Shown one piece after another: positions 10,494 through 29,054 of a stretch of DNA of 29,117 nt (the first letter of the stretch is position 1; each line of letters opens with the position of its first letter). This stretch comes from Candidatus Eiseniibacteriota bacterium (lineage in GTDB: Bacteria > Eisenbacteria > RBG-16-71-46 > DASYSL01). The stretch lies in contig JANPEF010000056.1 in assembly GCA_031431875.1 (NCBI GenBank), forward strand, positions 1 through 29,117, in the 5' to 3' direction. A program made the translations under genes and the position numbers. Under the pieces are notes generated by a model. The model was not told the DNA's origin. It saw nothing but the letters and a program-made list of their open reading frames with translations, and did not search any database.

Positions 10494-11123
10494 ATGGCCG
10501 AAGAATCCTTTACCCCGCTACGCTCCTTCGACGCGTTCTCCCCGCGCGGACTCGCCGGCAAGCGCGAGTACGTCCAGGGTCTCGAGGCCCGGGGCGATCG
10601 CGAAGCCGCCGCCCTCCTCGTCGAGTGCCTCAGTGACGAGTCCGGCTACCTGCGCGACCTTGCCGAGGCGGCGCTGATCCGCCTCAAGGCCGTGGCCACG
10701 CCGGTCCTTCCCATGCTCGCCTCCGGCCTGTGGTACACGCGGGTCAGCGCCGCCCGTACGCTCGGTCGCCTCGGGGCACGCGAAGCGATCGGGCCGCTCA
10801 TCGAGCTGCTCGCCGACAGCAACCAGTCGGTGCGCCGTGCCGGTGCCGACGCGCTGCAGGCGATCGCCCAGGGCGACGGCGCGTTGTTCGTCGCACGCAT
10901 GCTCTATCGGCGTCCCGAAGGCGAGCGCACGCGGCTCGTGCGCGAGATCGCCGGCGGCGCGCGCGATGTCGAGGCCCGCCTCGCCGACCTGCTTCGCCAC
11001 GATGAGGCGATGCGCGCCGACGAGGACGAACTCCTCAGCCACGACGCCGACGTCGTGCGGGCGAGCGCCGACGGCGTGGCCTGGGAGCTGCTCACCGGCC
11101 CCGGTCGCGGCGGAGCCCGCTGA
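10494..11123 (+). CDS. HEAT-repeat (PBS-lyase-like) protein
   Basis: SD AGAAGGA. Repeated LxDxxxxVRxxAAxAL-type units, e.g. WYTRVSAARTLGRLG...AIGPLIELLADSNQSVRRAGADAL. Confidence 0.85.
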   Translation: MAEESFTPLRSFDAFSPRGLAGKREYVQGLEARGDREAAALLVECLSDESGYLRDLAEAALIRLKAVATPVLPMLASGLWYTRVSAARTLGRLGAREAIGPLIELLADSNQSVRRAGADALQAIAQGDGALFVARMLYRRPEGERTRLVREIAGGARDVEARLADLLRHDEAMRADEDELLSHDADVVRASADGVAWELLTGPGRGGAR

Positions 11124-12016
11124 GCCCCCGCGGCGCTCCCGACGATCGCTCGCTTGCTCCCGATCATCCCGACTATCCGACCCGACTGCGTGCCGCCGGT
11201 CCGGGCGGCGGCCCTGTGCTGTCCCTGCGGGGCCATGGCCCGTGGCCCGCGCGACCGGCGGTCGCCATCGTCGGCGCCCGGGCCGCGACGGCGTACGCCC
11301 GACGCGTCGCGTTCGAGGTGGCGCAGGCCTGCGCCCACGCCGGGGTCTGCGTGGGGAGCGGACTGGCCCGCGGCGTCGATGCCGCCGCGCACGCGGGGGC
11401 GCTTGCCGGGCAGGGCACGACCGTCGCGGTCCTCGGCACCGGCATCGACGTCGTCTATCCTCCGGAACACGCGTCCCTCTACGCCGCTGTGCGCGCGAAC
11501 GGAACGCTGGTCACGGCGTTGCCCGCGGGCGCGCCGCCGCGCCGTGGCCACTTTCCCGCGCGCAATCGCGTGCTCGCCGCGCTGTGCGACGGCGTCGTGC
11601 TGGTGCAGGCCGACGCGAACAGCGGCGCCCATCACACCGTGCGCGCGGCGCTGGCCGGTGGCGCCTGGGCGAGGATCGCGCCGTGGCCGCTCGACGACGT
11701 GCGCTACGCCGGAAACGCCGGGTGGCTCGCGCGCGGCGCTGCGGGCGTCGCACCACTGCTCGACTCGGCGGAGCCCGCGCGGTCTGCCCGCATCTCCCGC
11801 ACGGCCCGCGCAGCGGAGGGCGGAGGGGCTGCCGCAAGCGATTCGCCGTCGGCCCGCCTGCAGGCGGCGCTCGGCTCGCGGGGTCGCACGCTCGACGCCT
11901 TGGCCCGCAGCGCCGGGCTCGGTCCGGCCGAGGCCGCAGTCGCCGCACTCGAACTGGAACTGGCCGGCATCGCGCAGCGCATGCCGGGCGATTGCTATCG
12001 GCGGGGGAGAGGATGA
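11120..12016 (+). CDS. dprA: DNA-processing protein DprA/Smf (no N-terminal SAM domain; C-terminal winged helix); start probably CTG
   Basis: DYPTRLR...L.LRG lies upstream of the first GTG (11216). VAIVGAR, SGLARGVDAAAH, TVAVLGTGIDVVYP, FPARNR; C-terminal LELELAG....PG. CTGA overlaps the HEAT stop. Confidence 0.88.
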   Translation: MSPRGAPDDRSLAPDHPDYPTRLRAAGPGGGPVLSLRGHGPWPARPAVAIVGARAATAYARRVAFEVAQACAHAGVCVGSGLARGVDAAAHAGALAGQGTTVAVLGTGIDVVYPPEHASLYAAVRANGTLVTALPAGAPPRRGHFPARNRVLAALCDGVVLVQADANSGAHHTVRAALAGGAWARIAPWPLDDVRYAGNAGWLARGAAGVAPLLDSAEPARSARISRTARAAEGGGAAASDSPSARLQAALGSRGRTLDALARSAGLGPAEAAVAALELELAGIAQRMPGDCYRRGRG

Positions 12017-13995
12017 GCGGCTCGCCGGTGCGCTTCGCGCACCGTCTCGAATATGCCGCGGTGCTGGCGCTCAGTGCGCTGGCTGGGGCATTGCCGCTGC
12101 GCGCCGCGCTCGCCCTGGGGCGTGGACTCGGCGCCGGGGCGTTTCGGCTCGGCGTCCGGCGGGGCGTTGCGACGGCGAACCTGGCGCGGGCGTTCCCCGA
12201 GAAGAGCGCCGGCGAGCGCGCGGCGATCCTGCGCGAGGCGTACGGGCACGCCGGCATGACGGTGGTCGAGCTGCTGCGCGCCGGGCGCATGGGGGAAGGC
12301 GAACGCGCCGCGCTCGTCGGGGCGATGCGGGGTGTCGAGCTCGTGACGGAGGCGCTGCGGCGCGGGACCGGAGTGGTGATCGCGTCCGCCCACTTCGGTG
12401 CCTCGGAGCTGATGGCCGTGCAGGCGGTCGATGCCGGCGTCCCCATCCACTTCTTCGTGCGCGCCCAGTCGAATGCACTGGTCGATCGCCTGCTCACCGC
12501 GCGGCGTCGCGCGCTCGGTGCGGGGATCGTCGGCCACGGCGAGCGTGGCGTGCGCGAGGCGTTGACCCAGTTGCGCCGGGGCATCTGCCTGGCGGTCATG
12601 GCCGACCAGGACGCGGGAAGGGACGGCGTCTTCGTGCCGTTCTTCGGCCAGCCCACATCGACGCCGCCTGGCCCGGCCGAGTTCGCGCTCCGCACCGGGG
12701 CGCCGCTGTTCTTTGCCGTCCTGCACCGCACTGCTGGCGGCGGATACGCCGGTGTGGTGGAGCCAATCCGCGCACCGCCACGGAGCGGGGACCACGCCGC
12801 CGACGTGCGCGAGCTCACGCGCCGCCACGCCGCCGCGCTCGAGCGTGTCATCCGGGAGCATCCGGCCCAGTGGATGTGGACGCATCGCCGGTGGAAGACA
12901 TCGCCGCCGGCGGCGCTTCTGCTTGCCGTGGCGGCACTGGTGATCCTGGTCGCGCTCGCCCCGGGCGGAGCCGTGGCTGTGCCTGCCGACTCCACGTCGG
13001 GGCTCGCCGGGCGCGCGCCGGAGAGTACGTTCGACGGCGCCGGCAGCACGGTCTTTCCGCTCGAGCGGGCGCGCGTACGGCGGCTGTTCGAGGACGTGCG
13101 GATCCGGCGCGGCGACGAGGGATGGTCGATTGTCGCCGACGAGTGGTTCGAGGCGGGCGTGGCGCCGGCGACTGTGGTGTTCGCGTTGCCCGACTACCGG
13201 GCAAGTCTCGCCGGGGCGGGCGACACGAGCATCGTGCGCGGCACGCTGCGCGACCTCGAGGTCACCGTCGACGGATTGCCCATGGCGATCGAAGCCCTGC
13301 CCGGCAACGCCGCGCCCGGCGCCGACCTCGGCGGAATCGAGCGCATCCTTCGCTTCAGCGTTCCGTTCGCTGCCGGGGAGAAACGCGGCATCCGTCTGGT
13401 CTACCGCATCGGCGAGTCGCACACCGACGCGGGGGAGCCACTCCTCTTCTACTACCGCAATCCCGGATCACTGTGGGAAGGGGAAAGCCCCAAGTCGACC
13501 GTGCGTGTCGATCTCGGCGCATGGTCCGCCGACGACCTGGTCATCGGTTGGCTGCGCCCGCGGGGCTATCGTCTGTACGCGGATTGCGTGCTGTGGCATC
13601 GCCCGGCGGGGGAGGAGCTGGCCGACATCGCCCTCGGGGCGCGGCCGCTCGGGGATCCGCTCGGTGCCTTCAGCGACCGAAAGCTCGGCCCGCTCGGTCT
13701 CGGCCTCGAGGCGCGCGAGGAGTGGATCGAGCGCCTGACGGCGAATCAGCTGCGCTACTTCATCGCCTGGTTGCCGGCGCGGCGCGGCGGGACCCCGCCC
13801 GGCAGCGGTCCCGGCTCGGGGCTGACGGGCGAGGTCTGGTGGAAGCCGGTCCGCGACTTCCGCGAGGAGAAGCTGTCGACCGACGAGCGCCGGCTCCTGG
13901 CGCGACTGCGCGAGCGGCTTGATCGCTGGGAGCGGTCGCGGATTCCATTTTTTGCGGGGCCGCCCTTCCTTCCGGGCGATCCTTCTGCCCCCTGA
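12013..13995 (+). CDS. LpxL/HtrB-family lipid A (lysophospholipid) acyltransferase fused through a TM/signal segment to a DUF4424-like plus YARHG-like module (660 aa)
   Basis: ATGA overlap. NLARAFPE, SAHFGASE (HxxxxE), ADQD, VPFFG, PAQWMWTHRRWK; then hydrophobic 12910-12978 and about 340 further residues with no stop. Confidence 0.85.
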   Translation: MSGSPVRFAHRLEYAAVLALSALAGALPLRAALALGRGLGAGAFRLGVRRGVATANLARAFPEKSAGERAAILREAYGHAGMTVVELLRAGRMGEGERAALVGAMRGVELVTEALRRGTGVVIASAHFGASELMAVQAVDAGVPIHFFVRAQSNALVDRLLTARRRALGAGIVGHGERGVREALTQLRRGICLAVMADQDAGRDGVFVPFFGQPTSTPPGPAEFALRTGAPLFFAVLHRTAGGGYAGVVEPIRAPPRSGDHAADVRELTRRHAAALERVIREHPAQWMWTHRRWKTSPPAALLLAVAALVILVALAPGGAVAVPADSTSGLAGRAPESTFDGAGSTVFPLERARVRRLFEDVRIRRGDEGWSIVADEWFEAGVAPATVVFALPDYRASLAGAGDTSIVRGTLRDLEVTVDGLPMAIEALPGNAAPGADLGGIERILRFSVPFAAGEKRGIRLVYRIGESHTDAGEPLLFYYRNPGSLWEGESPKSTVRVDLGAWSADDLVIGWLRPRGYRLYADCVLWHRPAGEELADIALGARPLGDPLGAFSDRKLGPLGLGLEAREEWIERLTANQLRYFIAWLPARRGGTPPGSGPGSGLTGEVWWKPVRDFREEKLSTDERRLLARLRERLDRWERSRIPFFAGPPFLPGDPSAP

Positions 13996-13999
13996 GCCT

Positions 14000-14039
14000 G
14001 CGGGCATTCTGCAACAGGTGCGGCACATTGCCCCACCTG
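14000..14039. promoter_or_regulatory. Paired dyad sites, candidate enhancer (UAS) for a sigma54 activator; could alternatively be a terminator hairpin
   Basis: CAGGTGCGGCA-CAT-TGCCCCACCTG (14015-14039; 11-bp arms, one mismatch) plus a related GCGGGCA-TTC-TGCAACA (14000-14016). Confidence 0.35.
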
Positions 14040-14186
14040 CCGGCCCGCCGTGCGCCGTTGATTCCGGACAGCGGTTCCGAGAACCCATCCAATGCGGTGT
14101 TTCAAACGTAAAGCCAACAGCGACTTGAGGTCTCCATCGAAGGTGCTTTCTAGACCAGGCTCCGGGTCCGGCAAGGCCCGGCAAAG

Positions 14187-14202
14187 TGGCCCGGCCCTTG
14201 CA
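14187..14202 (+). promoter_or_regulatory. Sigma54 (RpoN) -24/-12 promoter
   Basis: TGGCCCGGCCCTTGCA has the exact GG-N10-GC spacing of TGGCAC-N5-TTGCA. SD AGGAGG at 14231-14236 before ATG 14244. Confidence 0.7.
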
Positions 14203-14243: not shown

Positions 14244-16217
14244 ATGCCCGGTTCACGCGCTCCGATGAATCCATTGTCCCGCTGGGCCTCGCCCGACGCT
14301 CAGCGCACCCTCGCTCTCTCCGCGCTCCTGCTCGAACCCGTGGAGGAACGGGCCATCCTGCGTCGCACGGTGGCGGCACTGGCCGCGCCGGGTGGCCTCG
14401 GGTTCACCCGGTCGTTCCTGTTTGTCTACGATGCGGCGCACGGCACCTTCGTGGGTCGCCATGCCGTCGGCCCCGCGGACGCGAACGAAGCGCGACGGGT
14501 CGCCCACCTGGCGCTCGACGAAGGCGAATTGCTCGCCGCGCTGCGGGACCTCGACGACGACGCTCTCGAAGCCGCCGCCCCCGAGTCGACCGCGCGCGTG
14601 CGGACTCTCGCGCTGCCGCTGGAGCCCGGCGTGCATTCGCTGCTCGACGAGTGCCTGGCCAGAGGCGCCGGTCGCCTCGGCGCGAGCCCACCGGGGCCCA
14701 CCGGCGCGGTTGCGACCACGACGTGGGGCGATCGCCTCGCGCTCGGCGGTTGTGCGGCGGCGCTCGTGCGGGCATCCGACGAGCCGGTCGCGCTGCTGAT
14801 CGCCGATTGCGCGTTCACCGGAGCAGGAGTCAGCGACGACGACGTGGCGCGGCTGGGCCACGTGGCACGGCTCGCGGGCGCGGGCGTCGAGCGCGCCCGC
14901 GCGTCGCGCCTGCTCGCCGAGCGCGGCGGCCAGCTCGCCACCCTCGACGAGGCGGGAAAGAGCGCCGTCCAGACGACCAGCCTGCGCACCGAGCTCGCGC
15001 TCCTGGTCCGCGCCGCGACGCAGACCCTGTCCTGTCGCGGCGGCGTCCTCTGGCGCACGGCGGGTGAGCGCGCCACGCTGCTGCTCGAGAGCGTGCACGT
15101 CGCGGATGACACCTGTGACCCGCTCCGCGAGGCGCATGCGCTCGAGCCGCTGGTGCGCGACGCGCTGCGCGAGCGGGCGGCGCGTGTCGTGCGCGACGTC
15201 AGCCGCGATCCGCGGGTCGATGCCGACCGGGCACGCGGCTTCGGCCCGGCCCTCCTGGCGCCGGTGATGACGCCGGGCAGCGCGGCGCCCGCCGGCTTCC
15301 TGGTGCTGTGGAACCCGGCGGCGCACGGCCCGGGCGAGGCGGCCGGCTTCGATCGCGACGACCTGCGTTTCGCCGAGGCGATGGCCGGCACGATTGGGGC
15401 GGTGCTCGCCCAGTCGGCGCTGTCCGATCGCGTGCGTCGCGCCGAGGAACGCGCGGGCGACACGCGCAAGCAGCTGGCGACGGCCGAGCGCCTGGCGGCG
15501 CTTGGCGAGCTGGCGGCGCGCGCCGCGCAGGAGGTGAAGGCACCGCTCGCCTCGATCGGCGGGTTCGCCCGCCGCGTGCACAAGGGACTGGCCGAGGACG
15601 ATCCGCAGCGCGAGTACGTCGAAATCATCCTGCGCGAATCGGAGCGGATCGAGCGCCTGCTCGCCGAGCAGATGCAGTTCGTCCGCCTGTCGCGGCCGCG
15701 ACTCGCCATCGAGAGCGTGAACCAGCTCCTGACCGCGGCGCTGACCGGGCGCGGCGAGGCGCTGGCGAAGAAGCGCGTGCGCGTGCTCAAGAAGTTCGCA
15801 CCCGACGTGCCGCCGCTGCTGCTCGACGCGGAGAAGATCTCGCAGGTCGTCGCCAACATGCTCGACAGCGCGCTCGACAACATGCCCGGCAATGGGCGCC
15901 TGCGCGTCGAGTCGCGCCGGGCGCAGGGTTACATCGTGGTCGAGATCGCGGGGGAGGGTCCGCCGCTGGCGGGGGAGATGCTCGAGCAGCTGTTCGTGCC
16001 CTTCACCACCTCGCGCCGCTCGGGCGAGTCGGTCGGGCTGGCGCTCGCCCAGCAGGTCGTGCAGAGTCACGGCGGCGAGATCCGGGTGCGCTCGGAGGGG
16101 GACTGGGGGGTGATCTTCTCGTTCACGCTGCCCGTGTCCGAGAATCAGGATCGACGGCGCGCCAACGACCGGCGCGGTGTCCGGAACGATCGCCGGAACC
16201 GCTTTCCGGCGGCCTAG
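14244..16217 (+). CDS. Cytoplasmic GAF-GAF-HisKA-HATPase protein with degenerate catalytic motifs (pseudo-histidine kinase) and DRR-repeat tail
   Basis: ERLAALGELAARAAQEVKAPL (H-box, H replaced by Q), NMLDSA, AGEGPPL, LFVPFTT, GESVGL, HGGEIRV; N-terminal GAF-like regions; no TM segment seen. Confidence 0.88.
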   Translation: MPGSRAPMNPLSRWASPDAQRTLALSALLLEPVEERAILRRTVAALAAPGGLGFTRSFLFVYDAAHGTFVGRHAVGPADANEARRVAHLALDEGELLAALRDLDDDALEAAAPESTARVRTLALPLEPGVHSLLDECLARGAGRLGASPPGPTGAVATTTWGDRLALGGCAAALVRASDEPVALLIADCAFTGAGVSDDDVARLGHVARLAGAGVERARASRLLAERGGQLATLDEAGKSAVQTTSLRTELALLVRAATQTLSCRGGVLWRTAGERATLLLESVHVADDTCDPLREAHALEPLVRDALRERAARVVRDVSRDPRVDADRARGFGPALLAPVMTPGSAAPAGFLVLWNPAAHGPGEAAGFDRDDLRFAEAMAGTIGAVLAQSALSDRVRRAEERAGDTRKQLATAERLAALGELAARAAQEVKAPLASIGGFARRVHKGLAEDDPQREYVEIILRESERIERLLAEQMQFVRLSRPRLAIESVNQLLTAALTGRGEALAKKRVRVLKKFAPDVPPLLLDAEKISQVVANMLDSALDNMPGNGRLRVESRRAQGYIVVEIAGEGPPLAGEMLEQLFVPFTTSRRSGESVGLALAQQVVQSHGGEIRVRSEGDWGVIFSFTLPVSENQDRRRANDRRGVRNDRRNRFPAA

Positions 16218-16330: not shown

Positions 16331-16406
16331 GCGACCCTAGCTCAGTTGGTAGAGCACTAGACTGAAAATCTAGGTGTCCCCGGTTCGATTCCGGGGGGTC
16401 GCACCA
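16331..16406 (+). tRNA. tRNA-Phe (GAA)
   Basis: 76-nt cloverleaf: acceptor GCGACCC/GGGTCGC, anticodon arm CTAGA-CTGAAAA-TCTAG, T loop TTCGATT, encoded CCA. Confidence 0.97.
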
Positions 16407-16425
16407 CCTTCGGGTCGGGAAACGG

Positions 16426-16501
16426 GCTGGTGTAGCTCAGCTGGTAGAGCAGCGCACTCGTAATGCGCAGGTCAGCGGTTCGATTCCGCTCACCAGCTCC
16501 A
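16426..16501 (+). tRNA. tRNA-Thr (CGT)
   Basis: 76-nt cloverleaf: acceptor GCTGGTG/CACCAGC, anticodon arm GCGCA-CTCGTAA-TGCGC, encoded CCA. Confidence 0.97.
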
Positions 16502-20176: not shown

Positions 20177-20274
20177 GGGAGCGCATGGGATCTGGTGGTC
20201 CCCGGGGACTTCAAATCCTTCGGTCGGTCGCGGATCGCGGCCGAGGTGGGTTCGATTCCCACACGTTCCCGCCA
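20177..20274 (+). tRNA. selC: tRNA-Sec (TCA)
   Basis: 98 nt. 8-bp acceptor GGGAGCGC/ACGTTCCC plus GCCA, 6-bp D stem with TGGT loop, anticodon loop CTTCAAA, 9-bp variable arm, 5-bp T stem GTGGG/CCCAC: the bacterial 8/5 tRNA-Sec fold. Confidence 0.95.
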
Positions 20275-28350: not shown

Positions 28351-28542
28351 ATGCCCGGCATCAGGGTGAAGGATGGAGAGTCCTTCGAGAGCGCCCTGCG
28401 CCGCTTCAAGAAGAAATGCGAGAAGGCCGGGGTGCTGGCGGATCTACGACGCCATCAGCACTTCGAGAAGCCTTCGGAGCGGCGCAAGCGCAAGCTCAAC
28501 GCCGCCAAGCGGAAGAATCTCGCGCGCAAAGTCGAAGCCTGA
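28351..28542 (+). CDS. rpsU: 30S ribosomal protein S21
   Basis: [27 protein letters not shown]...[12 protein letters not shown]. Confidence 0.97.
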
Positions 28543-28589
28543 CCGCGAGGCGTGAACTCCGCAGCGCGCAGGAACCTCGGCAGCACCGC

Positions 28590-28630
28590 GGGGCGGGGGG
28601 GTGCAACCCACCCCCTCGCCCCTTGCTTGT
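28590..28630 (+). terminator. Intrinsic terminator after rpsU
   Basis: 14-bp stem 28590-28603 / 28609-28622 (one G-U pair), 5-nt loop, followed by TTGCTTGT. Confidence 0.75.
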
Positions 28631-28655
28631 CCGGGGCCTGTGGCCGAGGGCGTCC

Positions 28656-29054
28656 ATGACCTTCCGGGATTCGACCAGCATGGCATCCACCGACCGCACG
28701 AATCCGGGCATCACGCCGACCGTCCTCGAGTTGCTCGAGTATCCAAAGATCACCGGGTGGCTCGCCGAGTTGACGAGTGCGCCCACCTCGGCGGCGCAGG
28801 CGCGCGCGCTCACCCCGGCCGTCGACCTGGCCGACGTGCGCACGCGCCTCGTCGAACTGGTCGAGGGCAAGCGCCTGGCCGAGACGAAGGGCCCGTGGCC
28901 CGGACCGCCGCCGTTCGCGGTCGCCGCCGCGATCGAGGACGACCTCGAGCAGGGCGGCGTGCTCGGCGCCCGGGCGCTGTACCAGGTTGCGGAGTTGCTC
29001 GCCGCGACCGCGGGCGGCGCCCCCGAAGTGGGCGGTGGGCGCGTACAAGGGTAA
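28656..29054 (+). CDS. mutS2: N-terminal fragment of endonuclease MutS2, ending early near the window end
   Basis: SD GAGGG. VLELLEYPKI...L.P..D...VR.RL.E..E and GGVL....L.QVA.LL resemble the MutS2 N-terminus; TAA at 29052-29054. Confidence 0.65.
   Translation: MTFRDSTSMASTDRTNPGITPTVLELLEYPKITGWLAELTSAPTSAAQARALTPAVDLADVRTRLVELVEGKRLAETKGPWPGPPPFAVAAAIEDDLEQGGVLGARALYQVAELLAATAGGAPEVGGGRVQG

Follow-up and report, generated by a model that had tools for sequence, protein, structure and literature searches.

A lipid A-type acyltransferase fused across an internal export-signal-like segment to a DUF4424/YARHG-like module in one family of uncultured bacteria

The window analyzed here is the whole 29,117-nucleotide stretch of contig JANPEF010000056.1 from the genome assembly GCA_031431875.1 of a Candidatus Eiseniibacteriota bacterium, and the gene in question lies on its forward strand at 12013-13995. 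Judging from the sequences compared, this gene encodes a lipid A-type acyltransferase that is fused, across a mid-protein stretch resembling an export signal, to a normally secreted protein, and the arrangement belongs to one uncultured bacterial family. The fusion of the acyltransferase with the DUF4424/YARHG-like module is real. A single open frame was found to run from the ATG at 12013, which overlaps the stop codon of dprA (ATGA) and is preceded by the ribosome-binding site GGGGGAGAGG, to the TGA at 13993-13995, resulting in a protein of 660 residues. An earlier note on this DNA had claimed that the enzyme domain runs on past about 300 residues into one chain; this was borne out by the 660-residue frame, in which HFGASE, ADQD and WMWTHRRWK were all present. 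HRRWK (residues 291-295) was followed in turn by TSPP, the hydrophobic core of 17 residues (300-316), PGGAVA, a short polar stretch and some 325 further residues. The segment AALLLAVAALVILVALAPGGAVA was located at 12910-12978, where the earlier note had placed it. Existing database names for the fused proteins refer to the acyltransferase only. The parts of the gene, in order, were as follows.

12003-12016, forward strand: ribosome-binding site rich in purines, with the dprA stop and the start codon sharing ATGA, seen in the sequence.
12013-13995, forward strand: fused gene (acyltransferase, internal signal-like linker and DUF4424/YARHG-like module), 660 residues, the frame being kept in all 9 other family genomes.
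12058-12900, forward strand: lipid A secondary acyltransferase-type domain (PF03279, residues 16-296), by Pfam, fold and alignment; predicted to be cytoplasmic and bound to the membrane by an N-terminal helix pair, the topology by analogy with E. coli LpxM.
12391-12408, forward strand: HX4E catalytic motif, H127-E132, by alignment to A. baumannii LpxM.
12883-12897, forward strand: HRRWK, the conserved end of the enzyme, which would act as the basic n-region of an internal signal.
12910-12960, forward strand: hydrophobic core, residues 300-316 (17 residues), predicted internal export signal or signal anchor; helix at 300-314 in the model.
12961-12978, forward strand: PGG-AVA turn with a signal peptidase I site predicted after Ala322 by pattern match.
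13018-13647, forward strand: DUF4424-like beta-sandwich, residues 336-545, with the lpg2210 fold, by fold and profile matches.
13705-13938, forward strand: degenerate YARHG-like helical domain, approximately residues 565-642, by profile alignment and beyond the reach of structural alignment.
13771-13788, forward strand: LPARRG, at the position of YAQYG in lpg2210.

The N-terminal half was assigned to PF03279 over residues 16-296 (E 1.3e-49; 169.4 bits against a cut-off of 22.3; model positions 18-295 of 295), and all 10 family members scanned scored above the gathering cut-off of PF03279. Residues H127, E132, R165 (12505-12507) and D198 (12604-12606) were aligned with H122, E127, R159 and D192 of A. 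baumannii LpxM, the LpxM numbering resting on an offset of 6 counted by hand; the roles of these residues in LpxM are described in the accessible LpxL and LpxM sections of a review (PMC6286764). H127, R165 and D198 were invariant and E132 nearly invariant in the family alignment, and the HX4E/D and DQD motifs were kept in 30 of 30 full-length fused proteins. The PF03279 match upheld the reading of an LpxL-type enzyme domain, whereas the specific name LpxL was not sustained, since the top NCBIfam model, TIGR02207, reached 119.3 bits against a cut-off of 297.8, all 17 listed models fell below their cut-offs, and the fold of the enzyme model was effectively tied between mycobacterial PatA (Z 22.2) and A. 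baumannii LpxM (Z 21.9).

The genes for LpxC, LpxB, LpxK and KdtA were present in the same genome. It also held three other PF03279 matches: the one scanned against NCBIfam scored best with the phosphatidylinositol mannoside (PIM) acyltransferase model, as did two PF03279 paralogues from sister-family genomes, and two were partial at contig ends. Because the scanned paralogue is PIM-like and the other two are partial, the fused enzyme was considered the strongest candidate for late lipid A acyltransferase in this genome, its substrate most likely being lipid A carrying 3-deoxy-D-manno-oct-2-ulosonic acid (Kdo-lipid A). A second PF03279 gene was apparently split over the end of contig G000:C64 and the start of G000:C158 (L082, L083) and was probably one gene broken by assembly; its N-terminal part followed a MerR-type gene, and its C-terminal part preceded a glycosyltransferase family 2 gene and surE.

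A direct Pfam scan of the C-terminal part gave no family at E<=0.1, and both DUF4424 and YARHG were absent from the Pfam matches of the 10 family members at E<=10. The Pfam cut-off for DUF4424 (PF14415) was not reached, and no PF14415 match was found in the same genome. A profile built from the 10 family members matched lpg2210 (PDB 4G2A) over both its domains (E 1.1e-6, positions 3-299 of 322), pairing LRARRG with YAQYG as well as the WY-x-P motif and the terminal Glu. In a Foldseek search with the whole model, lpg2210 was the top match (E 4.6e-17). When the module alone was compared with 48,161 chains, 4G2A was aligned with a Z of 21.4 and a root-mean-square deviation of 2.2 Å over 198 residues, although these structural alignments covered the DUF4424 sandwich only and ended at residue 262 of 4G2A. 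The next best matches were non-catalytic luminal or accessory domains, namely those of ribophorin I of the oligosaccharyltransferase (Z 12.3) and of LTA4H (Z 11.6). The identity of the module to lpg2210 was 17-18%. The hhalign probability for the module against P0025 was 97.3, and 33 of the 39 distant matches scanned (out of 55) carried PF14415 at E<=0.001. The DUF4424 call of the earlier note was confirmed by the fold and the profile, at a level below the Pfam cut-off.

Its call of a degenerate YARHG domain also held, again below the Pfam cut-off: the profile covered both domains of 4G2A, and the standalone relative P0004 matched YARHG (PF13308) weakly, at E 0.0064 and 16.9 bits against a cut-off of 27. 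The model showed a confident helical domain in this region; the four-helix bundle of lpg2210 (residues 263-349) lies outside the structural alignments. In most members the Gly cap, a small residue, Arg, the downstream W-[WY]-x-P and Glu were kept and the Tyr and His of the motif were lost, the motif of the fused members being mostly LxARRG. Approximately 20-25 residues after the motif were missing in 4 of the 39 aligned fused modules (P0078, P0079, P0082 and P0084), and residues there were partly missing also in members ending in GPP or PGA. The DUF4424/YARHG clusters of the ESM Atlas, at 0.88-0.89, lay under its 0.9 line and were taken as a lead only. According to the accessible text of PMC3848476, nearly all DUF4424 proteins have signal peptides; in the fused protein no such peptide stands at the N-terminus, the signal-like segment lying inside the chain (residues 300-322). 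Another, distant DUF4424-like gene was observed in the same genome at G000:C28:54708-55565 on the reverse strand (profile E 1.9e-21); it stood alone, carried an N-terminal signal-like segment and had no YARHG part, and a similar gene was carried by L108 (G205).

All 9 other family genomes contained the C-terminal half, each time sharing one open frame with the enzyme and at 39-92% whole-protein identity; outside the family it was found in 1 of 31 genomes, where the match was weak (E 3e-4). Scans of sequence collections returned 9 genome loci (eight Candidatus Eisenbacteria/Eiseniibacteriota and one uncultured bacterium), which overlap the family set and are not independent of it, and 15 metagenome loci. 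The fusion was seen in 23 of these 24 loci, and the remaining one ended at a contig end inside the module. A protein search yielded 39 matches among 8000 scored candidates, 30 of them covering at least 72% of the query. The junction was also spanned by two contigs from two runs of another study, X7 (11849-14200, 89 substitutions) and X8 (12785-13736, 28 substitutions), both with no gaps; four runs flagged as possible sources were not counted. Contigs of study P2 (X5) did not span the junction. An assembly fault at the junction, for which the earlier note had left room, was contradicted by both the nine in-frame copies and the gap-free contigs. Since no conserved in-frame start was found among 18 distinct junctions, the module was not regarded as a separately initiated protein. 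A hairpin resembling a terminator at 12902-12915 was rejected as being within chance (2 found, 1.2 expected).

The ratio of non-synonymous to synonymous substitution rates (dN/dS) was estimated over nine pairs, which are not independent of each other. DUF4424 had values of 0.06-0.15, the YARHG part, which is shortened in some of the pairs, 0.09-0.33, the enzyme 0.12-0.37 and the linker 0.16-0.88, so that in most pairs the linker was the least and DUF4424 the most constrained part. By these values both halves are functional and under purifying selection, with a looser linker. In the predicted structure, the template modelling score (pTM) was 0.47 for the whole chain and 0.79 for the module alone, and the per-residue confidence (pLDDT) was mostly below 50 at residues 290-302 and 314-338, the Pro/Ala-rich linker being disordered in the model.

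The linker of the 660-residue protein comprises 44 residues, including the 17-residue core. Among 41 distinct linkers, a count that leaves out P0085 (DprA joined to the enzyme) and P0011, both of which read as frameshift-ridden, the length was 42-70 residues, and each contained a hydrophobic core of 11-28 residues (median 15). The spacer from HRRWK to the core was 0-31 residues, and that from the core to the module 12-41 residues. The hydrophobic residues were clustered beyond shuffled sequences in 35 of the 41. The best 13-residue hydropathy of the linkers had a median of 2.50, compared with 2.44 for the N-termini of 33 standalone homologues; for this control, 8 of 41 distant matches were dropped, namely two low-complexity non-homologues and six with apparently truncated or mis-called starts. 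A strict AxA site after a turn was found in 23 of the 41 linkers, that of the present protein included, against a shuffle mean of 17.9, and 39 of 1000 shuffles scored as high. The sequence of this protein fits the pattern of a basic n-region, an h-region of about 11-18 residues, a turn and a textbook PGG-AVA site. An internal lipoprotein signal was not found: its linker has no Cys, and a loosely lipobox-like Cys occurred in 4 of the 41.

The gene stands in a conserved block, obg-HEAT-dprA-acyltransferase followed by a GAF kinase gene and glmM, which is common to the family and its sister family. Its immediate neighbors were the following.

11216-12016, forward strand: dprA, the upstream neighbor in the obg-HEAT-dprA-acyltransferase block, by Pfam and synteny.
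14244-16217, forward strand: GAF-histidine kinase gene, the downstream neighbor, also present in sister-family loci that lack the fusion.

It was also observed that the HEAT-repeat gene (10494-11123, between obg and dprA) and the GAF-histidine kinase gene before glmM were kept in both families. For the sister family 20 loci were fetched, two of which were non-syntenic paralogues. In 18 of 18 syntenic loci the enzyme stopped within 32 residues of the aligned end, soon after HRRWK, and a thioesterase gene came next. This gene, of acyl-CoA/acyl carrier protein thioesterase type (4HBT), lies directly after the acyltransferase in the sister family (L023-L042), and a homologue with 48% identity was found in the present genome on another contig (G000:C131:12075-12455). 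Long sister-family frames (590-645 residues) over the acyltransferase were considered as further fusions and rejected, as they reach upstream across the dprA region and the enzyme itself ends a little past HRRWK. In 19 further loci, most of them from other families, the enzyme ended at most 44 residues past the motif in 18; in the remaining one it continued for 98 non-homologous residues. The acyltransferase was present in 197 of 206 genomes of the phylum. A module profile run over the 206 genomes matched the 10 family genomes and gave one weak match among the other 196. Three genomes of family f2 (G010, G012 and G014; 90-98% complete) differed from almost all others in the phylum in having no close match to this acyltransferase at E<=1e-20 and only weaker PF03279 matches.

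Four standalone close relatives of the module (P0004, P0057, P0096 and P0097) were found, whose N-terminal signals all terminate in a lipobox-like Cys. In quick trees of the module, these lipoprotein-like forms fell among the fused forms, and a single fused clade was not rejected (p-AU 0.076, approximately unbiased test). Because of this value, the order of events is left between fusion followed by fission and fusion of a lipoprotein ancestor. The simplest history, as read from the sequences, is that the module gene came to sit behind the enzyme in the family ancestor and then fused.

The PF03279 enzyme appears, on the sequences compared, to fuse readily. A second, unrelated family of PF03279 fusions (P0088, P0090, P0098, P0104 and P0105) carried a signal-like segment followed by about 200-280 residues with no Pfam match. 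In P0088, P0098 and P0104 the unnamed domain was joined after the same enzyme end motif by a hydrophobic segment, which was weaker in P0090. Their close relatives P0099-P0103 were unfused, and P0105 was apparently frameshifted. In P0092 the partner was PCMT (protein-L-isoaspartate O-methyltransferase), the junction being a hydrophobic segment that ends in Cys; its relative P0166 had no such segment. The fusions in P0088/P0098/P0104 and in P0092 share the junction design of the present protein, directly after the enzyme end motif, but their partners differ from DUF4424/YARHG. By precomputed Pfam matches, further PF03279 fusions were listed in P0091, P0093, P0094, P0095, P0133 and P0176, with an ABC transporter (PF00664/PF00005), a glycosyltransferase family 9 heptosyltransferase, LpxK, a polysaccharide deacetylase, PF01648 and PF06258.

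We proposed, with a probability of about 0.6, that in this family-wide fusion the internal signal exports the module and the enzyme stays on the cytoplasmic face, the two halves being largely independent and, in this organism, probably separated through a cut by signal peptidase I. What is observed of this mechanism is one conserved open reading frame, under purifying selection, that encodes an lpg2210-like module behind an enzyme whose catalytic site is intact. By analogy with its family, the N-terminal half would bind the inner membrane from the cytoplasm and transfer a secondary acyl chain, with Kdo-lipid A as the most likely acceptor. HRRWK would provide the basic n-region and residues 300-316 the h-region, and Sec would then thread residues 317-660 out. 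We lean towards a cut by signal peptidase I after Ala322 in this protein, as the PGG-AVA pattern predicts; in the many relatives with no clean site the module would stay attached to the membrane, making the chain a type II membrane protein. The fusion may be kept for one-to-one co-expression and for delivery or anchoring of the module, not for allosteric control.

An enzyme inside and a module outside, the topology given in the earlier note, was judged the most likely one. In E. coli LpxM the N-terminus and also the globular domain are cytoplasmic, as stated in the accessible text of PMC6133551, and the C-terminal end of the fused enzyme is therefore expected in the cytoplasm. Internal cleavage of an envelope-lipid enzyme by signal peptidase I has a precedent in LtaS (PMC12260438, in its accessible part). 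It is likely that the fusion ties DUF4424/YARHG only loosely to outer-membrane lipid assembly.

Several points weigh against this explanation. No unfused copy was found within the family genomes, down to about 38% identity, which exceeds the expectation for a neutral join. A lipobox-like Cys is present in all four of the closest standalone relatives, and the module may therefore need a membrane tether, which cleavage would remove. The enrichment of cleavage sites is weak, because the rule was made by ourselves after viewing the sequences and the linkers are related, and a strict site was missing in 18 of the 41 linkers. No other core of the set was as hydrophobic as that of this protein (19-residue mean 2.66), and 31 of the 41 linkers reached the usual membrane-helix level of 1.6. 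An uncleaved anchor is thus quite possible, given a core hydrophobicity at that level. The assignment of the substrate is also weakened, since PatA and LpxM are equally near.

An alternative that was judged unlikely, though it survived best, is that the chain stays whole and the periplasmic module binds lipid A, lipopolysaccharide (LPS) or an envelope enzyme, close to the place where lipid A is completed, as an accessory factor or chaperone, with no regulation of catalysis. Such a tether would agree with the lipoprotein-like nearest standalone relatives, the 18 linkers with no clean cleavage site, the strong constraint on DUF4424 in most pairs, and the non-catalytic luminal and accessory domains among the next fold matches, the fold being the same in M1 peptidases. 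Binding of a hydrophobic lipid or of LPS was proposed in the accessible part of PMC3848476. However, the enzyme occurs in 197 of the 206 phylum genomes and the module in this family only, so lipid A synthesis does not need the module. Moreover, LPS gets to the periplasm only after core assembly and flipping by MsbA, and location of the module beside the acyltransferase therefore brings no obvious gain.

The transmembrane sensor-enzyme of the earlier note was found less probable still, and the fused protein is most likely not a new regulatory system. In that reading the chain stays whole, lipid A, LPS or some other component of the envelope is sensed by the YARHG-like domain of the periplasmic module, and lipid A acylation is controlled by switching the acyltransferase through the membrane helix and tether or through regulated, ligand-gated cleavage at the junction. 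In its favor, all complete family loci that were examined had the fusion intact, and ligand-controlled cleavage by signal peptidase is reported for RsiV and RsiP (PMC4183432, PMC8844934). YARHG domains have been found outside a membrane helix that carries a cytoplasmic kinase or zinc-ribbon domain (PMC3355149, accessible text), an architecture which shares with the fused protein a cytoplasmic domain, one membrane segment and an outer YARHG. There, however, the inner domain is a signalling output and the sensing itself is hypothetical, whereas here the inner domain is a biosynthetic enzyme, DUF4424 intervenes and the linker resembles a signal peptide. With spacers of 0-31 and 12-41 residues around a core of 11-28 residues, the register is fixed neither before nor after the helix, and the signal-peptide-like, Pro/Ala-rich linker is in most pairs the least constrained part and is disordered in the model. 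In the fused members other residues take the place of the motif's Tyr and His, mostly giving LxARRG, and part of YARHG is deleted in 4 of the 39 aligned modules. The module also occurs free of any enzyme within the same tree clade. Since the junction design of PF03279 recurs with other partners, a sensor role for this particular pairing becomes less likely. If true, it would be a one-protein envelope sensor wired onto an enzyme of the Raetz pathway and the first function for DUF4424/YARHG.

It is very unlikely that the hydrophobic stretch is a non-exporting relic and the module a cytoplasmic part still attached to the enzyme. Some cores were short or Ala-rich (11-13 residues), 10 of the 41 linkers stayed under 1.6 in a 19-residue window, and the export machinery may miss a weak internal signal behind a folded domain of 295 residues. 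Against this, the core persisted in all 41 linkers despite low identity and changes in length, with clustering beyond shuffles in 35, and DUF4424 proteins bear signal peptides nearly throughout (PMC3848476, accessible part). An assembly error, a read-through artefact or a pair of overlapping genes with an internal start can largely be dismissed. An in-frame ATG does occur within WMW just upstream of the junction in this genome and in two close relatives, but it lacks both conservation and a ribosome-binding site, and 1 of the 18 distinct junctions contains none of ATG, GTG and TTG over the stretch examined. The frame is also kept in all complete family loci that were examined, and independent contigs traverse the junction with no gaps.

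Compared with known proteins, the N-terminal half shares with LpxL, LpxM and LpxP (PF03279; TIGR02207; 5KN7) and with PatA (5F2T) the same fold (Z of about 22 for both), HX4E with Arg and Asp, the N-terminal helix pair and the WxWxHRRWK end. The characterized enzymes are standalone monotopic proteins of about 300 residues, whereas the fused protein adds a second hydrophobic segment and a 340-residue module. In LtaS the cut separates parts of one enzyme, with the catalytic domain outside; unlike this, the cut proposed here would part two unrelated proteins, with the catalytic part inside. FbcH of Bradyrhizobium is a bacterial polyprotein precedent, and the literature searches for such precedents returned nothing relevant. 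Both LtaS and the fused protein are envelope-lipid enzymes with an internal signal peptidase I site, which here is only predicted (PMC12260438, accessible text). The module has the same two-domain order as the lpg2210-type proteins with DUF4424 (PF14415) and YARHG (PF13308) (4G2A; PMC3848476, accessible text), on whose sandwich it superposes as given above. Those proteins have an N-terminal signal and a YARHG/YAQYG motif, whereas the fused module has an internal signal and LxARRG and lies below both Pfam cut-offs.

An acyltransferase is not among the DUF4424/YARHG architectures described in the accessible parts of PMC3355149 and PMC3848476, which propose that YARHG binds peptidoglycan, an outer-membrane lipid or LPS; although a structure has been solved, neither a function nor recurrent gene neighbors are given for DUF4424/YARHG in those parts. 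The combination was not found in our searches of the open-access literature, supplements aside. Both parts are thus of known kinds, and we have not seen their combination described there.

Further features were recorded in the window. A selenocysteine tRNA (tRNA-SeC, by ARAGORN) was located at 20177-20274, between a RidA-family gene and a DUF5683 gene, and tRNA-Phe and tRNA-Thr at 16331-16501. An open reading frame of 212 residues at 28416-29054, downstream of the hrcA-grpE-dnaJ-rsmE cluster, had no Pfam match.

Through the family-wide fusion, DUF4424/YARHG is connected with an acyltransferase of lipid A type. This agrees with the published suggestion that YARHG binds an outer-membrane lipid or LPS, and the fusion offers a testable handle on DUF4424/YARHG. 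The junction seemingly exemplifies a recurrent layout: behind the end of a PF03279 enzyme comes an internal export signal, and behind that an exported protein that is unrelated. If the protein is cut, it would be a bacterial two-compartment polyprotein that annotation has overlooked.

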